Assembly (NCBI GenBank): GCA_021158245.1
Contig: JAGGVB010000065.1
Coordinates: 6,757 to 70,756 of the forward strand
Length of the DNA: 64,000 nt
Source of the DNA: a bacterium
GTDB taxonomy: Bacteria > Zhuqueibacterota > QNDG01
Reading direction: 5' to 3'
Shown piece after piece: positions 16,288-59,886 of this stretch. Position 1 is the first letter of the stretch. Every line of letters starts with the position of its first letter. Below the pieces are notes generated by a model that saw only the letters and a program-made list of their open reading frames with translations, had not been told where the DNA came from and searched no databases. A program made the position numbers and the translations under genes.

Positions 16288-18135
16288 CTATTCCTGTTTT
16301 TGATTTGCAGTAACACCAGTAGGAATCCTCGGAGGTGTATTGTCAGCAGGAGCATTACTTAAAGTTTTAGTCCAATTGTCAAAATCATACTCAATCTGTT
16401 TCCCGTGTTTTCTAACAATCATCTTATCTCCTGACCAGCGCACCAAATATTTACCATTATTATCAATTGCTTCAAGGCGTTTAAAAGGAAAAGTGAATAC
16501 AAATCCAAAATCACCAATGCCGCCCTTTTTCACAATAGAAACAAAGGTATCAGTACCCGGAAGCCTATTATAGCCAATCCAGTCACCCTTGCTTGTAATA
16601 TACTTACCTGTTCCAAGATCAGCATTCGCAAATATTGCCGCTTCAAAATCATCAAGGCTGGCATAATCCACACCTTCTATGGCTACTTCTAACGCACTGG
16701 TATTAACATCAGTACGAATCCTAATGGCAACCATTGTCCTTCCCTCTTTTAAAAATCTCCAATTACCAATAGTTTGATCTACATCAAAAGCATTGCTGCG
16801 CAGGGCAACATGAAAAAAGGTGGCCTTAATAAACATTGCATTTTTGTACTGGAACCCCTGTTCTCCTGTTGTAAGATAGTTCATGTAATAAACTGGATGT
16901 GAGACATCCTCCCCTACGTCTTTTGTATTTATCCACAATCTGAAAGGTATTCCAGGCCTGCCGTAGCTTCCCGGTTCATCATCGGATTTAATACATAGCT
17001 GCCAATTCGATGTTGCACCGCCGCCCAGGGAATAAAATTTTGTAACATAATCCCATTTACCCGTATTTACGGCCCTTGTAATACTCCTGTTATATTCCAT
17101 ATTTATATGATAATAATTATCCGGTTCATCACTTAAATCACCAATATCAAAGATAATATCAGGTAACCTGTAATCAGAAAAATAAATACTCCTTGAAGGT
17201 TCATGTGAAGGCCTTGGCCCCCCCCAGAATATATCCCAGTAAAATCGGCCCCACCCTTTTCTGTAAACTTCCTCATATGATCGTCCAAGCTCACCACCCC
17301 ACTGCTGACCACCATAATCCATTACTGAATCAATAAGATAGAAATCAATAAATATCTCAGCTTTACGCTTCATAACAGGGTCTTCCGAAAACTTTTGAAG
17401 AGCACTTATGCTGTGAATAATACACCAGGAATAAACAGGGCTGTCAAATTCATTATTACCAGATTTTACCCATTTATCAAGAAGATAATTAATATAAGCT
17501 TCACTTAACTCAAATTCATTGTATCTCTCGCCTATAGAATAAAGTTTTCCATTCCACATAAAAGGAATAACATTTTGACTGGGTGGAGGATCAGTTGAAT
17601 AGTTGATATAAATATTTTTATGATATTGGCTGTATAGATATCTTGCAACCCAATCTGCAATTTGACTATTTGGAGCACCTGGTGCAACATTGTTTGATCT
17701 GTACACTCCATCATATAAATTTTGTATAAATTGCTTATCACTCGGATAGATAACATCACCATAATCGTAGAGAATCCATAAAAGCATTACAGAAGATTGC
17801 CATTCTCCATAATGCCAGGCATGCGCATATGGGGCATAACCTTCAGATGTCCACAATGACCCCCAGCTTATGATTATATTATGTACAATATCAAGTGCTG
17901 GTTTTGAAACACCATCAATATCTGTAACATAGTAGGTATTGCCGTCCAGTGTACCATTCTTCATTTTTTCCAGCCACGCCCATATTCTTTCATGAAAACT
18001 ACGGCACTGTTCACCCATTGTATCAAGATATTCCTGCTTTTTCTGATCAAAAACTGTCTGAGCAGGTAATGAACCTGTAATGATGAATAGAAGGAACAAA
18101 ATAATTATCAGCAAAAATTTCCTTTTCTTAAACAT
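16288..18135 (-). CDS. large secreted hypothetical protein
   Basis: Type I signal peptide (SLPAQ|T), 615 aa. C-terminus DNTPPRIPTGV. Contains an in-frame G8 tract. Confidence 0.5.
   Translation of the reverse strand: MFKKRKFLLIIILFLLFIITGSLPAQTVFDQKKQEYLDTMGEQCRSFHERIWAWLEKMKNGTLDGNTYYVTDIDGVSKPALDIVHNIIISWGSLWTSEGYAPYAHAWHYGEWQSSVMLLWILYDYGDVIYPSDKQFIQNLYDGVYRSNNVAPGAPNSQIADWVARYLYSQYHKNIYINYSTDPPPSQNVIPFMWNGKLYSIGERYNEFELSEAYINYLLDKWVKSGNNEFDSPVYSWCIIHSISALQKFSEDPVMKRKAEIFIDFYLIDSVMDYGGQQWGGELGRSYEEVYRKGWGRFYWDIFWGGPRPSHEPSRSIYFSDYRLPDIIFDIGDLSDEPDNYYHINMEYNRSITRAVNTGKWDYVTKFYSLGGGATSNWQLCIKSDDEPGSYGRPGIPFRLWINTKDVGEDVSHPVYYMNYLTTGEQGFQYKNAMFIKATFFHVALRSNAFDVDQTIGNWRFLKEGRTMVAIRIRTDVNTSALEVAIEGVDYASLDDFEAAIFANADLGTGKYITSKGDWIGYNRLPGTDTFVSIVKKGGIGDFGFVFTFPFKRLEAIDNNGKYLVRWSGDKMIVRKHGKQIEYDFDNWTKTLSNAPADNTPPRIPTGVTANQKQE
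17228..17235 (-). repeat. G8 homopolymer tract (C8 on plus strand) inside a coding region
   Basis: Eight consecutive C at 17228-17235, which on the coding strand read TGG GGG GGG CCA (W-G-G-P). Confidence 0.9.
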
Positions 18136-35264: not shown

Positions 35265-36965
35265 TTATCTCTTTTCAGTATTTCCGCCTTTGTCTGCTGC
35301 CTCTCCCCACGAGTAGATTAAAAGGCTGTAATTTTTTGTTTCAATCGGTTTTTCAAAATGATTTTTAACATATTCCCGGATTTCACCGCTTGTATAGGCA
35401 TCTGTATTAAAAAGATATTTTTCAAGAACAATCCAGCCACTTTTATGAGTACTAATAATTTTTTTCAAATCTTCAAGATTTTCAATACATGGAACTCCTT
35501 CGTATATATCCACCCATCTGCCGTTCTTGTTTGCGTCTTTGAATCTCATTGATTGCCGAAGCAACCCGAAATTCAAAGTATAATCAGTAGCAGGGCAGTA
35601 AAACGAGCTTATTTGCGGAAGATTTGAAATAACAATATCTCCTTTCTGCATATTTTCACGCAGATACTTTCCAGCCGCCTTCCATTCACCGGGAGTTACT
35701 GCCATATTTGTTTTTCCGTCTTCTATCTTAGGAATATTGAGGCTGATTCTCATCCACGGTGAAACAAGAAAAACAACTGCCACTGAGAGAGAAATCAAAT
35801 ATCTAAGATAGGGTGCTAACTTCTTAACCCTCATTTTTATTTCATTTTTCACGGAATTCTCAGACTCAACAGAGGCTGTTTTCACAAACCATACAAGAGA
35901 ATATGCTGCAAGAAATATGAAGAAGGGATAAACATTAAAGAGATACATAGGGACTCTGTGAGTAAAAACAAATGACAGCATGAACAATTGGAATGTAAAC
36001 AGTATGAAAGAAAATATGCCTCTCTTATTACCCTTGAATATTACAAGTACTGCACCTGCAAAAAATAACGCACCCATTGGAAATCTGTAAACTGACATAA
36101 TGAAATCAAAAAGAAGCAGTCTGTACTTTGCGCCCACATCTCCTTTTACCCATTCAGGTGTATATGCCAGATAATACTTCAGGTTTGCCCTTATCCATGG
36201 TATAAAGATAACTGCAGCTGCAGTTAAAATTATAGCAGCGGCAGATATTAACATATATTTATTAAAAAATCTTTCTCTTCCATTTAAAAAAATAAATTTG
36301 ATAACGGCCATAACCAAAACGTACACAAAAAGCCCTAAAATAAAAATTGCAAATATTCTGTGAACTTTATAAAATGTATACGCACCGAGCAGCAATGTTG
36401 CTGCTATCCAGATAAGGGAAAAATCCCATTTTTTCTCAATGGAGGGCAGTATCAGAAATCTCTTTTTGCCTTTTTCAGGCTCAAACCCGAGAATAAAAGA
36501 GTACGCAACGGCCAATGTTAAAAATTGCAGCATAGTATACATCTTTGCTGTTCTTGACCACCCTACTGCAAAATGCGAAAATGCAAGAAGCAGAGCAGCT
36601 ACAAGAGCCGTCTTTCGATCAAACATCCTTGCACCGATAACATAGATTAACCACACACCGAGTATTCCGAAAATTGCGGAAGGAAGCCTTGTTGCAACTT
36701 CTCCCGGTCCGATTATTTTTGAAAATAACGCTGCGCAATAAGTGTAAACAGGTGCCCGGCCGTATAAAAACCCTGAAGGCATATTCAAGCCTTCGCCGGC
36801 ATTAAAAGATTGTGCTGCATAATACACATTGATTTCATCAACCCAAAAGCTCTGCCTTCCCAAATGAGATAATCTTAAAAATGATGCAGCAGCCAAAATT
36901 ACAGCAAGAATAATCCAGTATCTGAACTTGTCTTTATTTATTTTTTCGCCTGATTGATAATCCAT
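35265..36965 (-). CDS. GT-C fold membrane glycosyltransferase (ArnT/PMT-like)
   Basis: 566 aa with FWVDEINVYY and GRAPVYTY motifs in N-terminal loops. C-terminal soluble domain. Confidence 0.65.
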   Translation of the reverse strand: MDYQSGEKINKDKFRYWIILAVILAAASFLRLSHLGRQSFWVDEINVYYAAQSFNAGEGLNMPSGFLYGRAPVYTYCAALFSKIIGPGEVATRLPSAIFGILGVWLIYVIGARMFDRKTALVAALLLAFSHFAVGWSRTAKMYTMLQFLTLAVAYSFILGFEPEKGKKRFLILPSIEKKWDFSLIWIAATLLLGAYTFYKVHRIFAIFILGLFVYVLVMAVIKFIFLNGRERFFNKYMLISAAAIILTAAAVIFIPWIRANLKYYLAYTPEWVKGDVGAKYRLLLFDFIMSVYRFPMGALFFAGAVLVIFKGNKRGIFSFILFTFQLFMLSFVFTHRVPMYLFNVYPFFIFLAAYSLVWFVKTASVESENSVKNEIKMRVKKLAPYLRYLISLSVAVVFLVSPWMRISLNIPKIEDGKTNMAVTPGEWKAAGKYLRENMQKGDIVISNLPQISSFYCPATDYTLNFGLLRQSMRFKDANKNGRWVDIYEGVPCIENLEDLKKIISTHKSGWIVLEKYLFNTDAYTSGEIREYVKNHFEKPIETKNYSLLIYSWGEAADKGGNTEKR

Positions 36966-36966
36966 G

Positions 36967-37926
36967 TCATAATCTCCCCTTTTCTGTTGAAAGGCCGGAC
37001 CTGTAAGGCCCGCGGATAAATCCCCAGGTATACGCTATTAATCCTAAAAATATCAAGGGATAGTGAAAAATAAAGCTTAAAAACAGTTTATAATCTGACT
37101 GAACTAACCGTTTGCTTATTATCAAAGTTCTGTAAACAGGAATAAACACAATTAAAGGAGGATATTTAAGAAGAAAATATCCATGCCGTTTTGTCCTTCT
37201 TCGCGTCTCATTTGCACCTTCTCCCAAAGCAACCTGATTTTTAATAAAATGATTAAACCCTGTTCTGTTTCTGTGAGTTATTGATGCATCCGGTAAAAAA
37301 TAAATATTGTATCCGGATGTCACAATATTATCACAAAGTATTGTATCTTCACCCTTCATAAAATCCGGGAAAAATCCGACACTCTCAAGTAAATCTTTAC
37401 TTACACATAAATTACATGAAGGCAGAGCTCCCACGTCTCCCATTTTTGCCATTGGATTCATCTCATTAAATTCAAGCAGATATTCCGCAGTACCCACATA
37501 ACTGTCAGGAGTGCCATTTGCAACACCCCCTCCTGCTGCTTTGTATCCTGCCTGCAGTTTTTTCCAAAGTAATTTCAGCCAGTCAGGGCTTGCTATGCAG
37601 TCACTATCAATAAAGAACACAAAACTGCCGCGAGCCAAACGCGCGCCCTCTGATCTGGCAAGGCCAGGCAGAGTCCTTCTGTTGAGATGCAGAACTTTTA
37701 CCTCTGTGAAACACTCTTTCACATCCTGTGTAATATCTTCAGGTGAACTGTCAACTACTATAACTTCATAGGGCATATCTATTGTCTGATTCATAACAGA
37801 TTCAAGACAAAGAAATAGATCCCTTCCTGATTTATAAGAGGGAATAACAATGGAAATTTCCGGTGCTACACTATTATTATTTTTTATCTGCATTTCTCTA
37901 TTTTCCTGCCAATGTTTCAATTGCAT
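36967..37926 (-). CDS. glycosyltransferase family 2
   Basis: ISIVIPSYKSGRDL, DxD (FIDSDC). Confidence 0.75.
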   Translation of the reverse strand: MQLKHWQENREMQIKNNNSVAPEISIVIPSYKSGRDLFLCLESVMNQTIDMPYEVIVVDSSPEDITQDVKECFTEVKVLHLNRRTLPGLARSEGARLARGSFVFFIDSDCIASPDWLKLLWKKLQAGYKAAGGGVANGTPDSYVGTAEYLLEFNEMNPMAKMGDVGALPSCNLCVSKDLLESVGFFPDFMKGEDTILCDNIVTSGYNIYFLPDASITHRNRTGFNHFIKNQVALGEGANETRRRTKRHGYFLLKYPPLIVFIPVYRTLIISKRLVQSDYKLFLSFIFHYPLIFLGLIAYTWGFIRGPYRSGLSTEKGRL

Positions 37927-39028
37927 CTATCATTCCGTTCCAATCTCTGTTTTTTCTATCCAAAGCATAATTTTTAAGAAATTCAGAATCTTTTTTTATT
38001 TTGCCTGCCATGAACTCTCTCATTGATTCTGCAAGAGCATCAACATTATCGGGTTCAATTACAACGCCATGTGTTTCAGATATAACATTCTCGGCAAGGC
38101 CGCCAACATCAGTTACTATTACAGGTCTTCCCATTGTAAATGCAAGCTGAGGTACTCCGCTCTGAGTTGCATCTCTGTAAGGAAGAACAACAACATCAGC
38201 AGCTGAAAAAAACAGTTCGAATTCATCCTCGGATACGTATCTGTCAACAATAGTTATTTGTTTATTCAGGCCCTTATCTTTGATGAGAGTATTGTAAAAA
38301 TCTCTTTTACCCCAAAACTCTCCGGCAATTAAAAGATGTGCGGATTCATTATCAATCAGGGAAAGAGCATCTATTAATAAATCCAACCCTTTGTAATAAC
38401 GCACAAATCCAAAAAAGAGAAAAACAATCTTATCAGAAGGAATACCAAGAGATTGCCTTGCCTCGTAATTATTAATCCCTTTGATTACCGGCTCAGGATG
38501 AGGTGCAATCGGGAGGGCCTCAACATCTTTTCCCGGACAGATTTCCATTAATTTCTTTTTATCCGATTCGCTGTGCACTGTAAATCCCTGAGAGGATCTC
38601 AGAGCCCATTTCGTAATTGTTTCCCATATAACCCCGTTCTCATGAGGGAGAACATTATGGCATACATAAACAGTTTTTACTCCTATACGCTTTCTTACAA
38701 TATTTGATATAAATTTCCAGCAAAACGCAAAAAACGGGACCCACCATATAAAAACAATAATATCCGGTTTATATGATACTATACTCTCGGCAGTATATGC
38801 CCACGTCGCAGGATTTAATGAATCTATTATATAACTACACTCTTTAAATTTCCTGATTTTACCTGGTTCTCTGTCTGTGCTGCCCGGAAATAAAAATGAC
38901 GGATACTGCCTTTTAAAAGAAATAAAATAAACCTCGTGCCTCTTTTTAAGAAATTTCCACAAGAGAGTTGTGTGCTGAGCAATGCCGCCTCTAAAAGGGA
39001 ATGTCGGGCCTATAAGAACAATCCGCAT
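37898..39028 (-). CDS. glycosyltransferase family 4
   Basis: GT4 motif in the C-terminal half. Start set to the internal ATG at 39026-39028 (MRIVLIGP), which removes the overlap with the upstream gene ending at 39033. Confidence 0.75.
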   Translation of the reverse strand: MRIVLIGPTFPFRGGIAQHTTLLWKFLKKRHEVYFISFKRQYPSFLFPGSTDREPGKIRKFKECSYIIDSLNPATWAYTAESIVSYKPDIIVFIWWVPFFAFCWKFISNIVRKRIGVKTVYVCHNVLPHENGVIWETITKWALRSSQGFTVHSESDKKKLMEICPGKDVEALPIAPHPEPVIKGINNYEARQSLGIPSDKIVFLFFGFVRYYKGLDLLIDALSLIDNESAHLLIAGEFWGKRDFYNTLIKDKGLNKQITIVDRYVSEDEFELFFSAADVVVLPYRDATQSGVPQLAFTMGRPVIVTDVGGLAENVISETHGVVIEPDNVDALAESMREFMAGKIKKDSEFLKNYALDRKNRDWNGMIDAIETLAGK

Positions 39029-39032
39029 TTTT

Positions 39033-39980
39033 TTATTTATCCCCTTTAATATCACTCTTTTTCAAACGATACAAAACTTCCTCTATCAGTCTTCTATTGG
39101 CTGAAATAATGTCAGCAAGTAATCCTATCATACCTACCTGAAATCCCACAATCATAAAAACCGCAGAAAGAATCAATGACTGTATATGGCCCTCACCCTG
39201 ATGAGTAAGGAAAAAATAAAGGAATCTCATAGATACAAGAAAACCTACACCAAAAATAAATCCGCCAATATATAAAAAAGTCTTTAAAGGCTCATAAAGA
39301 GCATAAATTCTGGCAATTGTTGCACCTGACTGATTTATATATGCAAAAATACTTTTAAAAAGTCTTGAAGGCCTTGTTGGTTTATTTGTCCTTATTGATA
39401 CATGGGCTATCGGGATACCCTTTTTACCAGCCTGAATTATTGTGTCAAGTGTATATGTAAATTGTGATATCACATTCATCCTTAATGCTGCTTCCCTGCT
39501 GAATGCTCTGAACCCGCTTGTTACATCAGGAACAGTTGTATTTGAAATATGCCGAACAACCCAGCTTCCCAGTTTTTGAAGCAGCTTTTTGATAAATGAA
39601 AAGTGCTCTACCTGCATTACTTCCCTGTCTCCGACCACCATATCAGCACTTCCTGCAAGTATCGGGTCAATTAATTTTTGAATATCCTCAGCTCTGTATT
39701 GGTTGTCTCCATCAGTGTTTACAATAATATCTGCTCCGAATCTGAGAGAAGAATCAAGGCCTGCCGAAAAGCTGACTGCAAGCCCTCTGTTGCTTGTAAG
39801 ACGTACAATATGATCTACTCCCAGCTCTCTTGCCTTTTCCACAGTCCTGTCTGTACTTCCGTCATCAATTACCAGAAGTTCAACAATATCAATGCCATCA
39901 AATTTTCGGGGAATTGCCTTTATTGTTGCAGGCAAAGTCCTCTCTTCATTATAACAGGGTATCTGAATTATAAGCTTCAC
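39033..39980 (-). CDS. GT2 polyprenyl-phosphate glycosyltransferase (DPM1/GtrB-like) with C-terminal TM helices; GTG start
   Basis: IQIPCYNEE...VIDDGSTDRT...DGDNQ, 315 aa. Start codon GTG at 39978-39980, preceded by a G8 tract. Confidence 0.75.
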   Translation of the reverse strand: MKLIIQIPCYNEERTLPATIKAIPRKFDGIDIVELLVIDDGSTDRTVEKARELGVDHIVRLTSNRGLAVSFSAGLDSSLRFGADIIVNTDGDNQYRAEDIQKLIDPILAGSADMVVGDREVMQVEHFSFIKKLLQKLGSWVVRHISNTTVPDVTSGFRAFSREAALRMNVISQFTYTLDTIIQAGKKGIPIAHVSIRTNKPTRPSRLFKSIFAYINQSGATIARIYALYEPLKTFLYIGGFIFGVGFLVSMRFLYFFLTHQGEGHIQSLILSAVFMIVGFQVGMIGLLADIISANRRLIEEVLYRLKKSDIKGDK

Positions 39981-39982
39981 AA

Positions 39983-39990
39983 CCCCCCCC
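39983..39990 (-). repeat. G8 homopolymer tract (C8 on plus) forming the entire RBS/intergenic spacer
   Basis: Minus strand reads TAG-C-GGGGGGGG-TT-GTG. The 11-nt intergenic region between two GT2 genes is essentially a poly-G run. Confidence 0.9.
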
Positions 39991-39991
39991 G

Positions 39992-40942
39992 CTAGTTAAT
40001 TATTTCTTCTATATTATATTCAGTAACATCGCCTGCGTGAGTAAAAATAATCATCTCACCAAGCAGGCCTATTGATATCATCTGAATACCGATTACAAGT
40101 AAAAGAGCACCGAGAATTAAAAGCGGCCTTCCTGCAATAGGCCCCATGCCAAGAATTCTGTAAATGAACAGATAAACTTCAATTGCAAGACCTGCTGCAC
40201 TGAAAAATGAACCCACAAACCCCAGAAAATGAATTGGTTTTTTCGAATAACGGGTAAGAAAAATTACCGTTATTATATCAAGCATACGCTGGACATACTC
40301 CCTTGGATAACGGGAATTACGGAAACTCCCGGGCAGCTGAGCTATTTTCTCTTCAGAAACCTTATACCCCTGCCCTGCAGCAAGAACAGGAATAAAATTG
40401 TACAAATCTCCGTAAAATGATATTTTATTAAGCACTTCTCTTTTTGTAACAAGAATACCGCTGTTGATATCGTGCAGCCGCCTCTTTAAAAACCAGCTTG
40501 CAAGAAGATTAAAAACTTTTGAGACACTTCTGTTAAGAACGGAATCTCTGCGGGGTGAACGCCATCCTGCAACAAGATCACTTTCCCCGTCAAGCTTTTC
40601 AAGAAATGCCGGAATGCCGTAAGGATCAATATTGACTCTTCCCGAAATATAAACGATAATATCTCCCATAGAGTACTTAAGGCCGGCATCAAGGCATGCA
40701 GCTTCACCGAAAGTAGAACGCATACGAACAATATGAATTTTATCATCATTTTTCATCAGCATGTGCAGCTTTTCAAAAGTGCTGTCATTAGACGCATCAT
40801 CTATAAAAATATACTCTATCGATTTGCTGACACTCTTCACAGCATCTGCCAAAGAAGTGTAAAAATCTTCAATATTTTTCTCTGCATTAAAAATTGAAAC
40901 TATTACCGATACCTCTGCATGGGAACTGTCACTCTTTCTCAT
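39992..40942 (-). CDS. GT2 polyprenyl-phosphate glycosyltransferase (ArnC-like)
   Basis: VSVIVSIFNAEKNI...FIDDASNDST...AGWR and 2 C-terminal TM helices. Paralogous to the next gene. Confidence 0.75.
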   Translation of the reverse strand: MRKSDSSHAEVSVIVSIFNAEKNIEDFYTSLADAVKSVSKSIEYIFIDDASNDSTFEKLHMLMKNDDKIHIVRMRSTFGEAACLDAGLKYSMGDIIVYISGRVNIDPYGIPAFLEKLDGESDLVAGWRSPRRDSVLNRSVSKVFNLLASWFLKRRLHDINSGILVTKREVLNKISFYGDLYNFIPVLAAGQGYKVSEEKIAQLPGSFRNSRYPREYVQRMLDIITVIFLTRYSKKPIHFLGFVGSFFSAAGLAIEVYLFIYRILGMGPIAGRPLLILGALLLVIGIQMISIGLLGEMIIFTHAGDVTEYNIEEIIN

Positions 40943-41909
40943 ACCAGTCCTCGTATTTATCAGTTAAAAGTGGAGAGAGAGTAAGGCCTCTCCTATCCCC
41001 TGTTTTCACAATGAGGCTTGCAACAAGCCCTAAAAAGAAAAACTGCAGTCCTGTTACAAAAAACAGGAATACAAGAGTAATAACAATATTAAGCTCAGCA
41101 GCATCAAGAGTTTTTCCTGCAAAAAGAAACAGAAACCATAAAAGTGCAAGGATCCCAAGAGCAATAACTCCCGCACCTAATTTGCCGAAAAATCTTAAAG
41201 GAGCACGAAGATATTTAAGAAAAAGATTAAGAGAAGACAAATCCATAAGTACACGGAATGTCCTCGTAAGATTGTACTTTGATTTTCCGAACTTTCTGGC
41301 ATGATGGTTTACAGGTATTTCCGCAATCCTTGCTCCTTCAATTTTTGTCAGTGCCGGAAGGAATCTGTGCATCTCCCCATAAAGCCTTATCCCCTGTATT
41401 GCTTCCCTTCTGTATGCCTTAAGTGCACATCCCGTATCATGAAGATCAACATGGGTAACAGAGCAGATAAGCCTGTTTGCAATAAAAGAAGGTACTTTTC
41501 TTATAAATAGCTTATCCTGTCTGTTTTTACGCCACCCGCTCACAACATCATAGCCCTCTTCCAATTTTGAAAGAAGTTTCGGTATATCTGCCGGATCATT
41601 CTGCAGGTCTCCATCCATAGTTACAAGAACATCCCCTGTAGATATTGAGAATCCTGCTGCCATTGCAGCAGACTGGCCAAAATTCTTACGTAAAAAAATA
41701 GCTCTGAAATCCGGATCTGCAGCGGCAATCTCCTTAAGTTTATCTCGTGTTCCGTCTGTACTGCCGTCATCAATAAAAATTATCTCTGTCAGCAAATCAA
41801 GATTGTCCACAGCTTTCTTAATTGCGGAATAAAGCAAAGGTACATTCTGTTCTTCATTAAAAACAGGTACTACAACTGAAAGGCCTGTAATGTTATTTGT
41901 TAAATTCAT
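40929..41909 (-). CDS. GT2 polyprenyl-phosphate glycosyltransferase (ArnC-like)
   Basis: LSVVVPVFNEEQNV...FIDDGSTDGT...SGWR and C-terminal TM helices. Confidence 0.75.
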   Translation of the reverse strand: MNLTNNITGLSVVVPVFNEEQNVPLLYSAIKKAVDNLDLLTEIIFIDDGSTDGTRDKLKEIAAADPDFRAIFLRKNFGQSAAMAAGFSISTGDVLVTMDGDLQNDPADIPKLLSKLEEGYDVVSGWRKNRQDKLFIRKVPSFIANRLICSVTHVDLHDTGCALKAYRREAIQGIRLYGEMHRFLPALTKIEGARIAEIPVNHHARKFGKSKYNLTRTFRVLMDLSSLNLFLKYLRAPLRFFGKLGAGVIALGILALLWFLFLFAGKTLDAAELNIVITLVFLFFVTGLQFFFLGLVASLIVKTGDRRGLTLSPLLTDKYEDWYEKE

Positions 41910-41911
41910 AT

Positions 41912-44011
41912 TTATAGATCAACCTGCTTCCACACCGAATCCATTATTTCCATAGAGAGACGGCCGTTATCAAGACTGACAGGCATTTCCGTGCCGTCTA
42001 AAATTGACTTATAGAAAAGATTAATTAATATCTCATTACCTTTAAACAGCGTGTGCTTGCCGGTAAACACCTTTATCTCGTTGCTCAATCCTTTAAAATA
42101 CATTTTCCTGCCGTTGCGTTTAAGCACCATGTTTCTGCTTAAAACCTTGGGAGCCATAGGCACATCTTTGTTTAAGAGAGTGGTGTTGTACATAAAATCA
42201 ACAGTCAGGCTGCCTTTGGTTCCGTAGAGCCTTAAGAAACATAAACGCGGTGTTGCATTAAAAGACAGAACAATGGATGCAAGAACTTTACCGGATTTCA
42301 TTGATATTCTGAGTTCATCACTCTTCATAAAAGGTACAACTTTGTGATATGCGGAAGAGACATTAATATCAGAAACATCATCAACAATATCAAGTAAAAC
42401 ACTTAAGGGATGAGAAATAAAATTTTGGAAAAGGGAGCCCGGAAGATCGTAAACCCAGTGGTTTCTCGCCTGCCACCTTAGATAGGGGCTGCCTGTATTT
42501 GAACTGTAGGATGTCCCGAACCAGCTCTCAACCTGCACAATATTGCCTATTGCTCCGCTGTTCAGTATCTCCCTTGCTTCAATCATTGCAGGATCATAAA
42601 GAAGAGAATGTTCAACACACAGTTTAACATTGTTCTCTTTTGAAGTGCGGATCATCTCCCCGGCCTCCTCTGCATTAACAGCCATTGGTTTTTCCACAAG
42701 TACATGACACCCTTTTTTCATTGCTGCGATTGATACCGGGGCATGAGTCTGTGCTGAAGATACGACATGAACAACATCAAGATTCTCTTTGTCAAGCATT
42801 TCCAAATAATCGGAATAGATATTTTCAACACCGAATTTTTCCGAAAGTCTCTTTGCAGCATCAACATTTGTATCACAAAGCGCAGTAACATTTGCATTTG
42901 GAATCTTTTTAAGGATTGACAGATGTGTTTTTGAAAATGAACCGCATCCGACAATTCCGACATTTAGTTTTTTCTTCGAATTTATTACAATCCGCTTTTC
43001 AGGTACAAGGTGATGACATACAGGTTTCTGCTGATCTTTATGCCACTCCATAACCTCTTTAACAGCTTCTCTGACATTAGGAACCGGCACCCAATCCAGA
43101 TCTTCTTTTGCACGTGTATTTGGATATTTAAGGGAAAGTGTAAATAATTTAAGATATTGAGGGCTAAGGCGTGAAGGGGCCGCCTTACCCATTATACCGA
43201 ACATTTTTCTAAGCATAAACGCTAGAACCTTTACAATTGGAAACAGTATTCTGATTATTTTAAATTTCGGATTCAAAATACTCTTCAGTATCTTAAGATA
43301 CTCTATTTTGCTGACAGATTTGTCTTCAGTAAGATTATAAGCTTTACCTGCACATTTTTCACAAGTAAGTGATTTGGCCACTGCATCTGCAACAGTACGA
43401 ACATGCGTTAGGGTCAATTCCGATTTTCCGCTGCCTACAATTATATATCCGTTTGCTCCTGCTGCTATACCAAGACGTGCGGGATAGAGAAGGCCTCCGG
43501 GCCCGTAAAGCGCCGCAGGCCGAAGTACAACTGTTTCCAGTCCTTCTTTTTCATGAAACTCTTTTATAAGGTTCTCAGCCTCAATTTTTGAACGTGAATA
43601 ATGATTTGTATATTCCTGTTCAAAAGGAGAATCCTCAGGAAATGATGATCCGTTCTTGACGTTTGAATGGTCGTATACAACAACAGAGCTGATAAATATA
43701 AATCTCTTAACTTTGTGTTTTACCGCTTCTTTTAAAATCCGCTCGGTTGAAAGCACATTCTCTTCGTAAAAATTCTCCCACGGGCCTCCCTTTGATGTTG
43801 CAGCGTGTACAATTGCATCTGCACCCTTAATCGAATCAAGCCAGGAAGTTTCGCGGATATTCCCAATAACATAATTTAAGTTGTACTCATCAAGATGACT
43901 GATATTACTTGTCGGCCTTATGAGTGCTGTAATCTCATGCCCCTGCTCTTTTAAAGCTTTGACAAGGTGCTGGCCAAGAAAACCTGAAACTCCTGTCATA
44001 AATATTTTCAT
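41912..44011 (-). CDS. bifunctional fusion: N-terminal NAD-dependent epimerase/dehydratase (extended SDR) plus C-terminal Gfo/Idh/MocA oxidoreductase
   Basis: Residues 1-330: TGVSGFLGQHL with YSRSK (YxxxK). Residues about 350-699: VGIVGCGSFSKTHL...GCHVLVEKPMA, the classic Gfo/Idh/MocA N-terminal motifs. Confidence 0.7.
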   Translation of the reverse strand: MKIFMTGVSGFLGQHLVKALKEQGHEITALIRPTSNISHLDEYNLNYVIGNIRETSWLDSIKGADAIVHAATSKGGPWENFYEENVLSTERILKEAVKHKVKRFIFISSVVVYDHSNVKNGSSFPEDSPFEQEYTNHYSRSKIEAENLIKEFHEKEGLETVVLRPAALYGPGGLLYPARLGIAAGANGYIIVGSGKSELTLTHVRTVADAVAKSLTCEKCAGKAYNLTEDKSVSKIEYLKILKSILNPKFKIIRILFPIVKVLAFMLRKMFGIMGKAAPSRLSPQYLKLFTLSLKYPNTRAKEDLDWVPVPNVREAVKEVMEWHKDQQKPVCHHLVPEKRIVINSKKKLNVGIVGCGSFSKTHLSILKKIPNANVTALCDTNVDAAKRLSEKFGVENIYSDYLEMLDKENLDVVHVVSSAQTHAPVSIAAMKKGCHVLVEKPMAVNAEEAGEMIRTSKENNVKLCVEHSLLYDPAMIEAREILNSGAIGNIVQVESWFGTSYSSNTGSPYLRWQARNHWVYDLPGSLFQNFISHPLSVLLDIVDDVSDINVSSAYHKVVPFMKSDELRISMKSGKVLASIVLSFNATPRLCFLRLYGTKGSLTVDFMYNTTLLNKDVPMAPKVLSRNMVLKRNGRKMYFKGLSNEIKVFTGKHTLFKGNEILINLFYKSILDGTEMPVSLDNGRLSMEIMDSVWKQVDL

Positions 44012-45857: not shown

Positions 45858-47624
45858 TTAATTAATAAATCTTTTTACAAGCACCCAGTAAATTTTTAGA
45901 ACTGCATTCATAATACCAGTACCCATCTTGATGATTTTTGACTGGCTCCCTTCTCCTATGAGATCTATTGAAGCACCTGTTAACACATCTTTATCCCTCA
46001 CTCTTTTAATCTTCATCACCTCACGTCTTTTGCGAAGAACAAGAGGGAGTGACCATAGTGCTGCAAATCCTCCTTTAATTACAGGCCAGCCCTGCCCCTT
46101 GAGAAGCATACCGAAAAAAACCGCTCCCTGGTAAAGAAAAATTGCAGGCAGAGTAAAAAACAGAGTACGCAGATTGTAAGTTTTCAGTACAAACCACCAG
46201 CGGTTTCTTACCTGATAAAAGACCCACGGCATTCCTTTTTTCTCTTTCAAATGGAAGACCCTGGCTCCTGCAACATTTAGACAGGGATAACCTGCTATCG
46301 TCATTCTGAAAGAAAAATCTCCGTCTGCCCATCCGTAAAAAAAGTCTTCGTCAAAATACCCTATCTCTTCAGCCTTTGCCTTGTCAACAAGCATTGCGCC
46401 TGCAGGTACTGCAGCAACAGGCCGGGGGACATCAAACATAAATCTGTTCATAACAGCCCCGCCTGCAAAATGAATATGTGCTCCGTTGTACTGAATTTTT
46501 TCCGGGCTGTTAAAAAACCGAATTTGAGCGCTTGCTACTCCTGCATCAGGATTTGAATCAAGGGCCATGTTCAGTTTTGACAGGGCATCAGGTGCAAGTA
46601 CAATATCATTGTCCACAAGAAGTACCCGCGGAGCCGCGGCCTCTTTTAAAATCAGATTTCTTGACGGATTAGGCCCTCTGTTTTCCATTGATATGATTTT
46701 GACATCGGGGAATTTCGATTTAAGGACATCAAGGCTGTTATCTGTTGACGAATTATCTACTGCTATTATTTCCGAAATACCATGACAATCCTGCTTATAA
46801 ATTGCATCCAGCGTCTTTCCCAGTACTTTCTCACCGTTGTAATTTATAATTCCTATTGTCACAGGTACCGGAGGAGTACCCTCCTCAGGCGGTTCCCGCT
46901 TTTTAAGTACTTTTGCAGGGCTTCCGACAGCAACTGCATAATCAGGTAGGTCTTTATTTACAACAGAACCAGCTCCTACAATAACGTTCCTGCCGATATT
47001 CACGCCGTCAAAAACAGATACATGCGCACCAAGCCACCCCCCCGGGCCTATGGTTATTCCTTCGGAAGAACGGCTCTGATGCAGTACAGGTATTGAGGGA
47101 TTATCAAAGTGATGAGTTCCGCCTACAAGATAAGTATATGCTGCAAACAGATTGCTGGCGCCTACCCTTACCCTGCTTGCAGAAAAAATGTGGCAATTCG
47201 CGCTTATGTTAACTTCGTCCTCAAGTATTATATCACCATTCTTGCAATTGAGGATTGTATTTCTTCCTATAAAAACGCCATTACCTATGTAGATTCCATG
47301 GTTGCCTGTTCCTTTTGCATCAAGAACGCAATTATCATCTATAACAACATTGCTTCCTATAAAAATCTTTTCCGGATGGCGTAAAACAACATTCTGCCCG
47401 AAAGTAACATTTCTGCCTGCGGAGCCCAGCAGTTTCGGATAAAGGGATTTACGCAAAACAAGGCCCAAAGCTCCCGGCATCCAACTTGCAATACCTATTA
47501 TTGTTTCATATTTAAGGAGCTTAAATATTCCCTTTGTCCCGAGCACAAGATCCTGGTACTTTGCCAGATTCCCCTTGCTGCTGAACAGCTCTTTTTGAAT
47601 TTCTATGGTTTGATTCTGATCCAT
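45858..47624 (-). CDS. fusion: N-terminal hexapeptide-repeat (LbH) acyltransferase plus C-terminal GT2 glycosyltransferase
   Basis: Hexapeptide repeats in the first ~230 aa (IGSNVVIDDNCVL... IGRNVIVGAGSVV), then VTIGIINYNGEKVL...AVDNSSTDNS, a GT-A fold, and C-terminal TM helices. Confidence 0.7.
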   Translation of the reverse strand: MDQNQTIEIQKELFSSKGNLAKYQDLVLGTKGIFKLLKYETIIGIASWMPGALGLVLRKSLYPKLLGSAGRNVTFGQNVVLRHPEKIFIGSNVVIDDNCVLDAKGTGNHGIYIGNGVFIGRNTILNCKNGDIILEDEVNISANCHIFSASRVRVGASNLFAAYTYLVGGTHHFDNPSIPVLHQSRSSEGITIGPGGWLGAHVSVFDGVNIGRNVIVGAGSVVNKDLPDYAVAVGSPAKVLKKREPPEEGTPPVPVTIGIINYNGEKVLGKTLDAIYKQDCHGISEIIAVDNSSTDNSLDVLKSKFPDVKIISMENRGPNPSRNLILKEAAAPRVLLVDNDIVLAPDALSKLNMALDSNPDAGVASAQIRFFNSPEKIQYNGAHIHFAGGAVMNRFMFDVPRPVAAVPAGAMLVDKAKAEEIGYFDEDFFYGWADGDFSFRMTIAGYPCLNVAGARVFHLKEKKGMPWVFYQVRNRWWFVLKTYNLRTLFFTLPAIFLYQGAVFFGMLLKGQGWPVIKGGFAALWSLPLVLRKRREVMKIKRVRDKDVLTGASIDLIGEGSQSKIIKMGTGIMNAVLKIYWVLVKRFIN

Positions 47625-56674: not shown

Positions 56675-58990
56675 TTAATATCTGTAATAACTGTATCCTT
56701 CATGAGCCACATCAACACCTGCACAATTTAATATTGCTCCCACTATTGTTGTTTCTACGGTTTCGAACAGCTCTAATTTTCTTTTTATATTTTCCTTATT
56801 CGTCATTCCAGACCTTATAAGTACGGCCACTCCGTCAACAAGAGTACCGATTATAACCGCGTCTGTAGCAGCCATCAGCGGGGGGGTGTCAAAAATGATA
56901 AAATCAAAATCTTTTGATACCTCTTCGATAAAATCTTTCATCTGCTGGGATCCTAATAATTCCGAAGGATTAGGGATAAGCGTTCCGCATGTAATAAGTG
57001 AAAGATTAGGTATGTACGTCTCATGCATAACATTTGACAGAGTTGCAATCCCAGTAAGATAGTTTGTCAATCCGGGTTTTTTTGAACAGTCGAAAGTGTT
57101 ATGAAGCACGCCGCGCCTTAAATCAGCATCAATTAAAAGTGTTTTTGATTTCTGTTGTGCTGTTGTAATTGCAAGATTGGCCGCTGTAAAAGACTTACCC
57201 TCCCCTGGTGCTGCACTGCCTATAACGAGGCTCTTAATTCTACCGAATTTTTTAGAATAAAACAAACTTGTACGAAGGCTCCTGTATGCCTCCCCAACCG
57301 GCGTGGGTGAATAATCATGCGTAACTATCTGGGAGCTGATACTCTTTGCCTTTTCGTCATCGGGCAGCTGAAAATCTTTAAATTTAACTGTAGGTATAAC
57401 ACCCAATATAGACAAATTCAGATAACGTTTTACATCTTCAGGGTATTTAATGCTTTTGTCGAGAATCTCCTTTGTCAAGACTATTCCGATACCAAGAAAG
57501 AACCCGAGCAGAACACCGATTATTGCTTTAAGCTTTTTACTTCCTGTTATCGGGGCTGTAGGAGGCACAGCCGGGTCAAGAACAGAAACCTGTTCGGAAA
57601 CACTTACAGCAGAGATCTGAGCCTCTTTATACCTTTTATAAACCATATTGTAAAGTTCTTCATTTGTATTTCTTTCCCGTGTAAGTTTTATTAATTCTAT
57701 CTCTTCAGCAGGAAGTGATTCCAACAGACTCTTCAGCTTCTGAATATTTGCATTCATCTCCTTATTTTGCCGGTCCAGATCTTTAACCTTTTTTTCCGCA
57801 AGTTCATAAATCCGGTTCTCAAGATTTGATATACGGCCGCTTATTTCAATAACATAGGGATTCTGTACCGGAGCACCGTTTTTTATCAGTTCACCTCTCG
57901 CTCTGTCAGAATCTAGAAGCTGCTGGTTTATCATTGACATTGCCGGATCATTCTGGAATACCGGAAGCTGAGGTATCTGTCTGTAAACATAACGTGCTGA
58001 GACACCGGTTGTAATATCAGTAACATTCGGATCAAGCTTTTGCAAAAGCATCTCAAGCTCTCTTTTAGCCAGGTTATTTTGTTTTATTTTAACAGCAAGA
58101 TCGTTAAGTGTGCTTACAGTATTTTCATTCTGTTTTGTAAGGCTTATCGGGTGCTGTATTCTAAACCGTTTTAAAGTATAATCGGATTTGTTTAACTCTG
58201 CTTTAGCCACCTTCAGCTCTTTTTTAAGGTGGCTGCTGATAAGTGTTGACTCCTCCCTGTTCATTGCCATACTTTTTTCAACAAAAATATTTGCCAGCCT
58301 GTTAACAGTCTGGCTTACAAGTACAGGATTAGTATCACGTAATATAATTTTCATTACATTGCCTGACCTGCTGTTTATTATCTTTTCTCTTGATCTTAAA
58401 TTATTAACTGTGGACTGAAACGGATTTATATAAAAATGAATAACTGACCTCCTGCCCACTATATCCTCTTTCAGTGAAAATCTTAACCCGTTATAAAATA
58501 CCGTATCCTGAATAAAAGATGAGGCATGCAGGCTGTCAAGCCGAACTCCATTGTAATAGAAAGAACAATATCCGGAAGGATAAAAAATTAATTTATAATC
58601 TCCGGGGACAGGCCTCCTTGTTGTTGAAAAATGGGAAAAGACTTCATGCCGTTTTAAAGGTGCCAGATGGTCTGATTTTTCCATCTTTAAAGTAAGCCCT
58701 AAATCCGCTGTTACTTCCTCTGCAAACCTCCTGCTTTTAAGTCTTAAAATTCTATTGTCTATTTTAGTAGAAGAAATATTTTTTACATTATCAAAAGTTA
58801 TCAAAGCTGTAGTTTCATAAAGAGGCGGCTGCTTTTTTACATAGATAAGCCATGGCACGGATACCAATATTGTAACAAGGCCTATAAACCACCATCCCTT
58901 TACAAGAGCCGAAATATATCTTTTTAGATCTACACCACCCTGCTCAGCCTGCTGTTCTTCAAAAAAATCTTCCATAAAAACTGTCTCCAT
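56675..58990 (-). CDS. polysaccharide co-polymerase / tyrosine autokinase (Wzc-like)
   Basis: N-terminal TM, periplasmic coiled-coil domain, second TM, and a C-terminal P-loop ATPase (GSAAPGEGKSFTAANLA). Confidence 0.8.
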   Translation of the reverse strand: METVFMEDFFEEQQAEQGGVDLKRYISALVKGWWFIGLVTILVSVPWLIYVKKQPPLYETTALITFDNVKNISSTKIDNRILRLKSRRFAEEVTADLGLTLKMEKSDHLAPLKRHEVFSHFSTTRRPVPGDYKLIFYPSGYCSFYYNGVRLDSLHASSFIQDTVFYNGLRFSLKEDIVGRRSVIHFYINPFQSTVNNLRSREKIINSRSGNVMKIILRDTNPVLVSQTVNRLANIFVEKSMAMNREESTLISSHLKKELKVAKAELNKSDYTLKRFRIQHPISLTKQNENTVSTLNDLAVKIKQNNLAKRELEMLLQKLDPNVTDITTGVSARYVYRQIPQLPVFQNDPAMSMINQQLLDSDRARGELIKNGAPVQNPYVIEISGRISNLENRIYELAEKKVKDLDRQNKEMNANIQKLKSLLESLPAEEIELIKLTRERNTNEELYNMVYKRYKEAQISAVSVSEQVSVLDPAVPPTAPITGSKKLKAIIGVLLGFFLGIGIVLTKEILDKSIKYPEDVKRYLNLSILGVIPTVKFKDFQLPDDEKAKSISSQIVTHDYSPTPVGEAYRSLRTSLFYSKKFGRIKSLVIGSAAPGEGKSFTAANLAITTAQQKSKTLLIDADLRRGVLHNTFDCSKKPGLTNYLTGIATLSNVMHETYIPNLSLITCGTLIPNPSELLGSQQMKDFIEEVSKDFDFIIFDTPPLMAATDAVIIGTLVDGVAVLIRSGMTNKENIKRKLELFETVETTIVGAILNCAGVDVAHEGYSYYRY

Positions 58991-59025: not shown

Positions 59026-59739
59026 TTAATAATTTCTGGATTTTAACCTTAAATACAACAGCAGTACCGATGCTGCCAAATTTATAATACCAACTAAAAA
59101 TGCTATACTAAGCTCATTCTTCCTTGGTGCAATAATCTGATCTCCGGATTCAATACCAACCTCTTCAAGAGAAATCCCTGCCTCAAAACTTTCAAGAAGT
59201 TTTTTAATAACAACCTTCCCCCCCCTCTCAGCTCTTAAACCCTCAAGATTGCAGTTGCTTGTCGGGCCTCCTGCCAAAGCAACAACATCCCACAAAGAAC
59301 TTGAAGGGTCAACTCTGTACGCTCCAGGCCTGTTAAAAGCACCCTGAAGAGTAAGGCGTATTAACGGCCTGATACTGACATAAGGATGGTTCAATTGAGA
59401 GGAGTATTTATCAATCAGAATCTGTTCAAGTTCATAAACAGTAAGCCCCTTAATCCTTACCTGTCCGATAAGTGGCATGATTATATTGCCGTCTGGTTTA
59501 ATCGTATAATCTCCGCTGATATCTCTGTTCTGTTTTTGCCCCTGGAAAAGTTCCCATATTTGAATTCGGACTGCATCGCCTGGCTGAAAAATTGTCAATG
59601 ATCGGGCAGAATTCCTCCACTGTGAACTCCTCTCCGCCTGTGCAAACAGAGCACTTGCATTTATAAACAATAGTACACCTATTATCAGCATAACTCTTTT
59701 AATAACAAGGCTGTTACATGTCTTAAATTTCATATTCAT
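59026..59739 (-). CDS. Wza-like outer-membrane polysaccharide export protein
   Basis: Signal peptide (LLFINASALFAQA), Poly_export and SLBB-like motifs (YTIKPDGNIIMPLIGQVRIKGLTVYELEQ). Start placed at the Met at 59739/59733, because the track ORF's 5' extension runs through the terminator hairpin. Confidence 0.75.
   Translation of the reverse strand: MNMKFKTCNSLVIKRVMLIIGVLLFINASALFAQAERSSQWRNSARSLTIFQPGDAVRIQIWELFQGQKQNRDISGDYTIKPDGNIIMPLIGQVRIKGLTVYELEQILIDKYSSQLNHPYVSIRPLIRLTLQGAFNRPGAYRVDPSSSLWDVVALAGGPTSNCNLEGLRAERGGKVVIKKLLESFEAGISLEEVGIESGDQIIAPRKNELSIAFLVGIINLAASVLLLYLRLKSRNY
59218..59225 (-). repeat. G8 homopolymer tract inside the wza-like coding region
   Basis: Eight consecutive C on plus. 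The coding strand reads GAG AGG GGG GGG AAG (E-R-G-G-K). Confidence 0.9.
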
Positions 59740-59833
59740 CAATCTATCCTTTCTATCCACAATCCAAACTTTTTCTAAATAAGAATAAAATTGCAAATAA
59801 CATACCATCATTACAATCTTGACAATTTGTTCA

Positions 59834-59859
59834 TAAAAAAGCATCCGCTCTGCGGATGC
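59834..59859 (-). terminator. rho-independent terminator
   Basis: On the minus strand, GCATCCGC-AGA-GCGGATGC is a perfect GC-rich 8-bp stem with a 3-nt loop, followed by TTTTTTAT. It lies 27 nt downstream of the STAS gene stop. Confidence 0.65.
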
Positions 59860-59886
59860 TGATAAAACTATCAATACATATTGCTT

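Follow-up and report, generated by a model that had tools for sequence, protein, structure and literature searches.

Introduction

Surface-glycan genes are a typical class of contingency loci, and eight guanines is the length at which slipped-strand mispairing becomes appreciable in some bacteria. For this reason a G8 tract close to the start of a glycosyltransferase gene invites an explanation in terms of variable expression. Two described leaders bear on the question. In Helicobacter pylori, the leader of tlpB-hp0102 carries a G-repeat upstream of a glycosyltransferase operon which is bound by the small RNA RepG, and the length of the repeat sets a gradual, RepG-mediated control of the glycosyltransferase (PMC8295292). 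In Mycobacterium tuberculosis, the addition of one G to a poly-G run in the 5' untranslated region of espR raises translation (PMC11898584).

In this study, we analyze a G8 tract lying between two GT2 glycosyltransferase genes in a 64-kb stretch of bacterial DNA, here called the window. A preliminary description of this DNA had taken the tract to be the ribosome-binding site of a GTG-initiated polyprenyl-phosphate glycosyltransferase, and had proposed that changes in its length alter expression by translational phase variation. We conclude, with a probability that we put at about 80%, that the tract is an ordinary ribosome-binding site, slightly extended in length and situated at a junction within an operon, and that it is fixed in the species.

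Results

Anatomy of the junction and start of the downstream gene

On the minus strand the junction reads ...GAA ATA ATT AAC TAG C GGGGGGGG TT GTG AAG CTT ATA ATT CAG ATA CCC TGT TAT AAT GAA..., and it is composed of the following features.

39994..39992, minus strand: stop codon TAG of the upstream GT2 gene
39991, minus strand: C between TAG and the G8 tract
39990..39983, minus strand: G8 tract, at -10..-3 relative to GTG, identical in eight same-species contigs
39986..39990, minus strand: GGGGG core of the probable Shine-Dalgarno element, at -10..-6, 5 nt upstream of the start
39983..39985, minus strand: lineage-specific GGG extension, at -5..-3, which is TTT in the closest relative
39982..39981, minus strand: TT between the G8 tract and GTG
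39980..39978, minus strand: GTG start codon of the downstream GT2 gene, its position conserved in homologues
39952..39959, minus strand: CCCUGUUA, codons 8-10 (Pro-Cys-Tyr), a possible 3' arm of a hairpin, weak and predicted

The order TAG-C-G8-TT-GTG is as first described; the tract, however, makes up 8 of the 11 spacer bases between TAG and GTG and not the whole of the spacer. An in-frame TAA at 39998..39996 precedes the downstream gene, and the codons from this TAA to GTG (CTA GCG GGG GGG GTT) include no start codon. Because of this TAA there is no alternative upstream start for the downstream GT2, and a start that would place the tract inside the coding region was ruled out on the same ground. 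Moreover, the N-terminus M-KLIIQIPCYNEE (M-K-L-I-I-Q-I-P-C-Y-N-E-E) is nearly invariant, and the start codon occupies the same position, in about 80 homologous metagenome loci; the GTG start is therefore well supported. Near-clade genes (68-86% identity) all begin with GTG or TTG, and most distant relatives with ATG. The remark in the preliminary description that the gene has no in-frame ATG holds for its N-terminal part but not for the gene as a whole, since the first internal methionine is residue 114, which is too far inside to serve as the start. The two GT2 genes are neither fused nor frameshifted, since both proteins are full length in comparison with their homologues.

Operon context

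The window has a G+C content of 38%, with G less frequent than C on the plus strand, and about 58 kb of it forms a single array of roughly 50 minus-strand genes. The genes around the tract are these.

41912..44011, minus strand: epimerase/GFO-IDH-MocA fusion
40929..41909, minus strand: GT2, ArnC-like
39992..40942, minus strand: upstream GT2, 316 aa, ArnC/PgfS-like, with a C-terminal membrane segment
39033..39980, minus strand: downstream GT2, 315 aa
37898..39055, minus strand: GT4
36967..37926, minus strand: GT2
35265..36965, minus strand: PMT_2 GT-C enzyme

Together they belong to a tightly packed glycan-biosynthesis array comprising three polyprenyl-phosphate-type GT2 genes, a GT4, a further GT2 and a GT-C/PMT_2 gene. 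The genes around the tract overlap or lie 1-11 nt apart. Within the surrounding 11 kb, promoter-like and terminator-like sequences were no more frequent than in shuffled sequence and none was placed on the coding strand at the junction; a scan of 38000-42000 gave no match to an Rfam family there. The tight spacing together with these negative results indicates that the tract lies at an internal operon junction; an internal promoter, a terminator or a known RNA family at this site was accordingly rejected. The C-terminus of the upstream GT2 (...EYNIEEIIN*) is kept in the orthologues.

Two further features of the operon were seen. The mechanical open reading frame of the GT4 gene begins at GTG 39055 (385 aa) and overlaps the GT2 gene by 23 nt; public gene calls place the start at ATG 39028 (376 aa, MRIVLIGPTF...), 4 nt past the GT2 stop, and this ATG is preceded by AAAGGGGAT, a further GGGG-type Shine-Dalgarno motif (39026-39055). 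In relatives, a gene for LPG_synthase_TM (PF03706) lies directly upstream of the three GT2 genes (1-808 in locus L007; 63-1067 in L008-L010); in the window the epimerase/GFO fusion abuts the first GT2 and the LPG_synthase_TM gene is missing at that position.

The downstream GT2 protein

Residues 7-165 of the downstream protein match PF00535 (1.4e-22), the N-terminal GT-A catalytic domain of GT2 enzymes. Sequence matches to enzymes of solved structure were to the Pyrococcus DPMS (5mlz, 1e-16), to ArnC (9bhc/8vxh, 1.5e-12 over residues 2-293) and to GtrB (5eke, 3e-8), and the translated sequence has two hydrophobic segments in its C-terminal part. The best NCBIfam model was AglJ (TIGR04182, 8e-35), whose score of 120.6 bits lies far below the cut-off of 325, and the protein reached none of the curated equivalog cut-offs for AglJ, ArnC, PpgS or PgfS. 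The name polyprenyl-phosphate glycosyltransferase is thus supported at the superfamily level only: the protein is best described as a putative polyprenyl-phosphate glycosyltransferase-like GT2 of the DPMS/AglJ/ArnC/GtrB kind. The nearest named genomes are metagenome-assembled genomes (MAGs) of candidate division KSB1, with protein P0007 of GCA_003645915.1 at 79% identity and others at 66-67%.

The family to which the gene at 39033-39980 belongs is unusually conserved, at 53-73% identity with an invariant N-terminus MKLIIQIPCYNEE (loci L014-L173), and the MAGs and genomes that carry it are labelled KSB1, Acidobacteriota, Chloroflexota, Cyanobacteria, Clostridia, Desulfobacterota, Planctomycetota and Actinomycetes. 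This conservation suggests either a strongly constrained, widespread and unnamed function or frequent horizontal transfer.

A guanine core at a fixed position in orthologous junctions

The same junction was compared in the closest orthologues, with the following result (spacer bases outside the guanine run in lower case).

Window, reference: TAG c GGGGGGGG tt GTG, gap 11 nt
L007, 86% protein identity: TAG c GGGGG ttttt GTG, gap 11 nt
L008, 79% protein identity: TAA tac GGGGG ctatt TTG, gap 13 nt
L009, L010 and L178, 79% protein identity: TAG taatac GGGGG ttgtt TTG, gap 16 nt
L011-L013, 78% protein identity: TGA gaca GGGGG aagca GTG, gap 14 nt

In every close orthologue (L007-L013, L178) GGGGG stands at exactly -10..-6, while the stop codon, the gap and the flanks vary. 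That the position of the five guanines is fixed while its surroundings change is the signature of a Shine-Dalgarno element. Distant relatives have at this junction purine-rich Shine-Dalgarno sequences (AGGAAGAGG, GAGAGGGA, AAGGGG, CAGGAGAG) or an overlapping TAATG. Within the window, many of the roughly 50 genes are preceded by GGAGG(TGA) or GGAGGTGA and several by GGGG-type motifs, and the organism uses Shine-Dalgarno-led initiation generally. The 5'-most five guanines end 5 nt from GTG, which the model used below treats as an aligned spacing of 4 (Shine-Dalgarno range about 4-10 nt). Pairing of GGGGG with CCUCC would comprise four G-C pairs and one G.U pair, the anti-Shine-Dalgarno sequence being assumed canonical from the GGAGGTGA motifs. 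The reading of the poly-G as the Shine-Dalgarno element, put forward in the preliminary description, is upheld by this comparison, and the comparison of orthologous intergenic regions proposed there reveals that the relatives carry G5 at the conserved place, of which G8 is an extended form.

The manner of this extension bears on the idea of phase variation, according to which slippage frequently alters the length of the run, shifts the Shine-Dalgarno spacing and so tunes or switches the supply of one lipid-linked sugar donor, diversifying the surface glycan. The spacer of L007 is cGGGGGtttttGTG and that of the window is cGGGGGGGGttGTG; both are 11 nt long (G5T5 and G8T2), so that G8 appears, from the alignment, to be the conserved G5 with GGG in place of TTT, a length-neutral change that resembles substitution rather than slippage. 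Furthermore, the five guanines of the orthologues are too short for slippage and give no sign of instability.

We propose that the GGGGG located 5 nt upstream of GTG pairs with the anti-Shine-Dalgarno core CCUCC of the 16S rRNA and that the motif would thereby recruit or retain the 30S subunit. The start is a weak GTG situated 11 nt past the preceding TAG, and ribosomes terminating there probably re-initiate, in a form of translational coupling. In this species, replacement of three T would have extended the 3' end of the run, taking it from G5 to G8 with the length of the spacer unchanged; the optimal register would be kept and additional registers gained.

Tract length within the species

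The tract is exactly G8 in all eight same-species contigs at the level of the assembly consensus (the window, L001-L006 and L177). These contigs are the window itself, Logan SRR14000037 and SRR14000038, ENA ERZ23499183 and ERZ23499206, JGI 3300016457 (n=2) and JGI 3300017593; they represent at least five samples and at least three haplotypes, and several of the samples may share one study site. Among them the downstream protein is 99.7-100% identical and the DNA at least 99.5% identical over the aligned parts. Relative to the window, L001 has 1 SNP, L005 has 3 SNPs, and L002 shows additional SNPs together with a diverged patch. In addition, both L002 and L006 have a 53-nt deletion, bordered by a CTGTTT direct repeat, at about 37081-37139 in the GT2 gene at 36967..37926; it shifts the frame of the C-terminus (311 aa instead of 319 aa) and is a genuine polymorphism between strains. 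Since SNPs and a 53-nt deletion are recorded in these contigs, the assemblies do capture variation in the operon, and none of it falls at the tract.

Two of the contigs have peculiarities of their own. In L002, a strongly diverged patch of about 70 nt (40743-40810 of the window) breaks the upstream GT2 into two open reading frames of 46 aa and 254 aa; it reflects strain variation or else a chimera formed in assembly. L177 (Logan SRR14000038_3973), a 26-kb contig, stops 33 nt downstream of the tract with the G8 intact; as the contig includes all eight guanines, branching over tract length does not account for the break, for which low coverage or a downstream variant are possibilities. A search of the metagenome_contigs collection with the variable-gap pattern AATAATTAACTAG N5-22 GTGAAGCTTATAAT gave no match and is uninformative, as that collection evidently does not contain these contigs.

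Homopolymers are error-prone in some sequencing technologies, and the length of the tract might on that account be attributed to sequencing or assembly. The same G8 was, however, recovered in independent assemblies from different runs and pipelines (Logan, ENA and JGI), which makes such an artefact scarcely credible.

It is also relevant that runs of this length are not enriched. The 64-kb window has three G8 runs, where dinucleotide shuffles give 1.06 +/- 1.54, and 13 of the 100 shuffles contain three or more; the tract is therefore not statistically remarkable per se. All three runs lie on the minus (coding) strand, and the other two are in frame within open reading frames, where they encode WGGP (17218-17225) and RGGK (59218-59225). 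The respective open reading frames are 16288..18135 and 59026..59874, also on the minus strand. There are G7 runs at 47037-47043, on the minus (coding) strand in the open reading frame 45858..47624, and at 56880-56886, on the plus strand opposite the coding strand of 56675..58990. Indels in these two intragenic G8 runs or in the G7 runs would frameshift the open reading frames concerned.

For phase variation it can be said that eight guanines come close to the length usually required for slippage, being borderline for a criterion of about 7-8 or more G/C, that the target is a surface-glycan gene, and that there are precedents for poly-G tracts in 5' leaders in H. pylori tlpB-hp0102 (PMC8295292) and M. 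tuberculosis espR (PMC11898584). The finding of exactly G8 in all eight same-species contigs, drawn from at least three haplotypes, speaks against it, as do the short run of the orthologues, the substitution-like origin of the extension and, within this one 64-kb window, the lack of enrichment. The preliminary description had itself named a fixed tract, free of length heterogeneity, as the observation that would tell against variation, and a fixed tract is what the assembled consensus reveals.

Modelled effect of tract length

The leader was paired in register with ACCUCCUUA by means of ViennaRNA, and a spacing penalty of the Salis-Mirsky-Voigt 2009 form was added; the outcome is a model and not evidence. 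With a canonical anti-Shine-Dalgarno sequence assumed, the G8 leader of the window scored -9.1 kcal/mol. The same model gave -8.6 to -9.4 kcal/mol for the G5 leaders of the relatives and -8.7 to -9.7 kcal/mol for the best canonical Shine-Dalgarno sequences of the window. Expanded tracts scored -9.9 (G9) and -10.6 kcal/mol (G10), and contracted tracts -7.6 (G7), -4.0 (G6) and -2.3 kcal/mol (G5TT). The change relative to G8 is thus -0.8 for G9, +1.5 for G7, +5.1 for G6 and +6.8 kcal/mol for G5, and pairing and spacing together predict that expression would rise about 1.4-fold with G9 and would fall 2-fold with G7 and roughly 10-fold with G6.

Contraction therefore weakens initiation in the model, and tuning by tract length is physically plausible. 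On the other hand, expansion changes little because the optimal register persists, and a gain or loss of a single G is predicted to alter expression by less than about 2-fold. A severe effect would be expected only on the loss of two or more guanines; the modelled response is graded and no switch is predicted. Re-initiation by ribosomes terminating 11 nt upstream would further buffer the effects of tract length. With eight of eight consensus sequences at G8, only G5 in the relatives and small modelled effects of a single G, the proposal of phase variation was not borne out, and we consider phase variation by frequent slippage at this tract to be very improbable.

A putative hairpin and a putative sRNA target

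The guanine run could also act through secondary structure. UAGCGGGG (39994..39987), made up of the stop codon and the first guanines, and CCCUGUUA may form a hairpin that encloses the start and sequesters the Shine-Dalgarno element; a ribosome terminating at TAG would melt the stem, and GTG would serve mainly on such occasions, which would enforce coupling. Pairing of the G-run with CCCUG is the minimum-free-energy structure in all near-clade sequences; all of these use CCC for the proline codon involved, although CCC accounts for 14% of proline codons in the window, and nearby relatives without the G-run use CCA. The z-score of the 121-nt fold is -2.47, and L011 has a z-score of -2.72. However, 70-nt folds gave z-scores of -1.06, -1.21, +0.56, -0.07 and -1.05 in five of six G-run sequences, mostly not significant against shuffles, and RNAalifold found 0 compensatory changes, the core pairs all being invariant. 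The association of the G-run with CCC (6/8 versus 31/71, in about 80 loci) does not look significant and is phylogenetically non-independent. We regard the hairpin as unlikely. It is an add-on to the Shine-Dalgarno explanation and not exclusive of it, and with low confidence we suggest that it would reinforce translational coupling.

A different role would be that of a target for a C/U-rich sRNA which, like RepG, sets the expression of the glycosyltransferase post-transcriptionally. The sole support for it is the analogy with RepG and tlpB-hp0102 in H. pylori (PMC8295292). No Rfam match was found near the site, the length of the tract is invariant here and strain-variable in H. pylori, and the constant position of the run relative to the start codon is already explained by Shine-Dalgarno function, so that we hold this role to be most improbable.

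Discussion

It seems that the G8 tract is a Shine-Dalgarno element whose position is conserved while its flanks are not, and the locus provides an example of this kind of conservation. The practical use of the result is modest: the GTG start and the boundaries of the genes are confirmed for a very widely conserved GT2 family. It also carries a caution, namely that a homopolymer beside a glycan gene is in itself no evidence of phase variation.

A more modest form of variation may be imagined for this uncultured, KSB1-like environmental bacterium, in which a Shine-Dalgarno element that has become a slippage-prone G8 acts as a low-frequency translational rheostat for one polyprenyl-phosphate sugar donor; minority variants with G7 or G6 would initiate progressively more weakly and would be invisible in consensus assemblies. 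We find this very improbable as well. If a free-living, uncultured phylum did possess a translational contingency switch, phase variation would reach past host-adapted pathogens and would include a mechanism other than the usual frameshift and promoter ones.

The junction resembles the contingency loci of Campylobacter, Helicobacter, Neisseria and Haemophilus in that a tract of at least eight guanines is associated with a surface-glycan glycosyltransferase. It differs from them in that there is no length polymorphism in eight contigs, the relatives have G5 and G8 runs are not enriched. Moreover, the tract is intergenic, so that indels would not shift the frame of the gene, and the host is an uncultured environmental bacterium and not a host-adapted pathogen.

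The H. pylori and M. tuberculosis leaders are the closest analogues of the switch idea, and their tracts, unlike the one described here, are demonstrably variable. The repeat of H. pylori lies in the leader of the first gene of its operon, varies in length between strains and acts via an sRNA, whereas the present run is, in our reading, the Shine-Dalgarno sequence itself, located at an internal junction and of fixed length. The espR leader of M. tuberculosis shares with this junction an untranslated poly-G run; there a single-G change alters translation efficiency, while no variants were seen here in the consensus of eight contigs.

The closer likeness is to a canonical Shine-Dalgarno sequence acting together with translational coupling. 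The core is GGGGG instead of GGAGG, which would make one pair a G.U wobble, and in this species it is part of a homopolymer of eight. The element is G-rich and predicted to pair with the assumed CCUCC core, it lies 5 nt upstream of the start at a position kept in the orthologues, and a weak start codon is combined with a Shine-Dalgarno sequence modelled as strong, across a stop-to-start gap of 11 nt, which in relatives is 0-16 nt.
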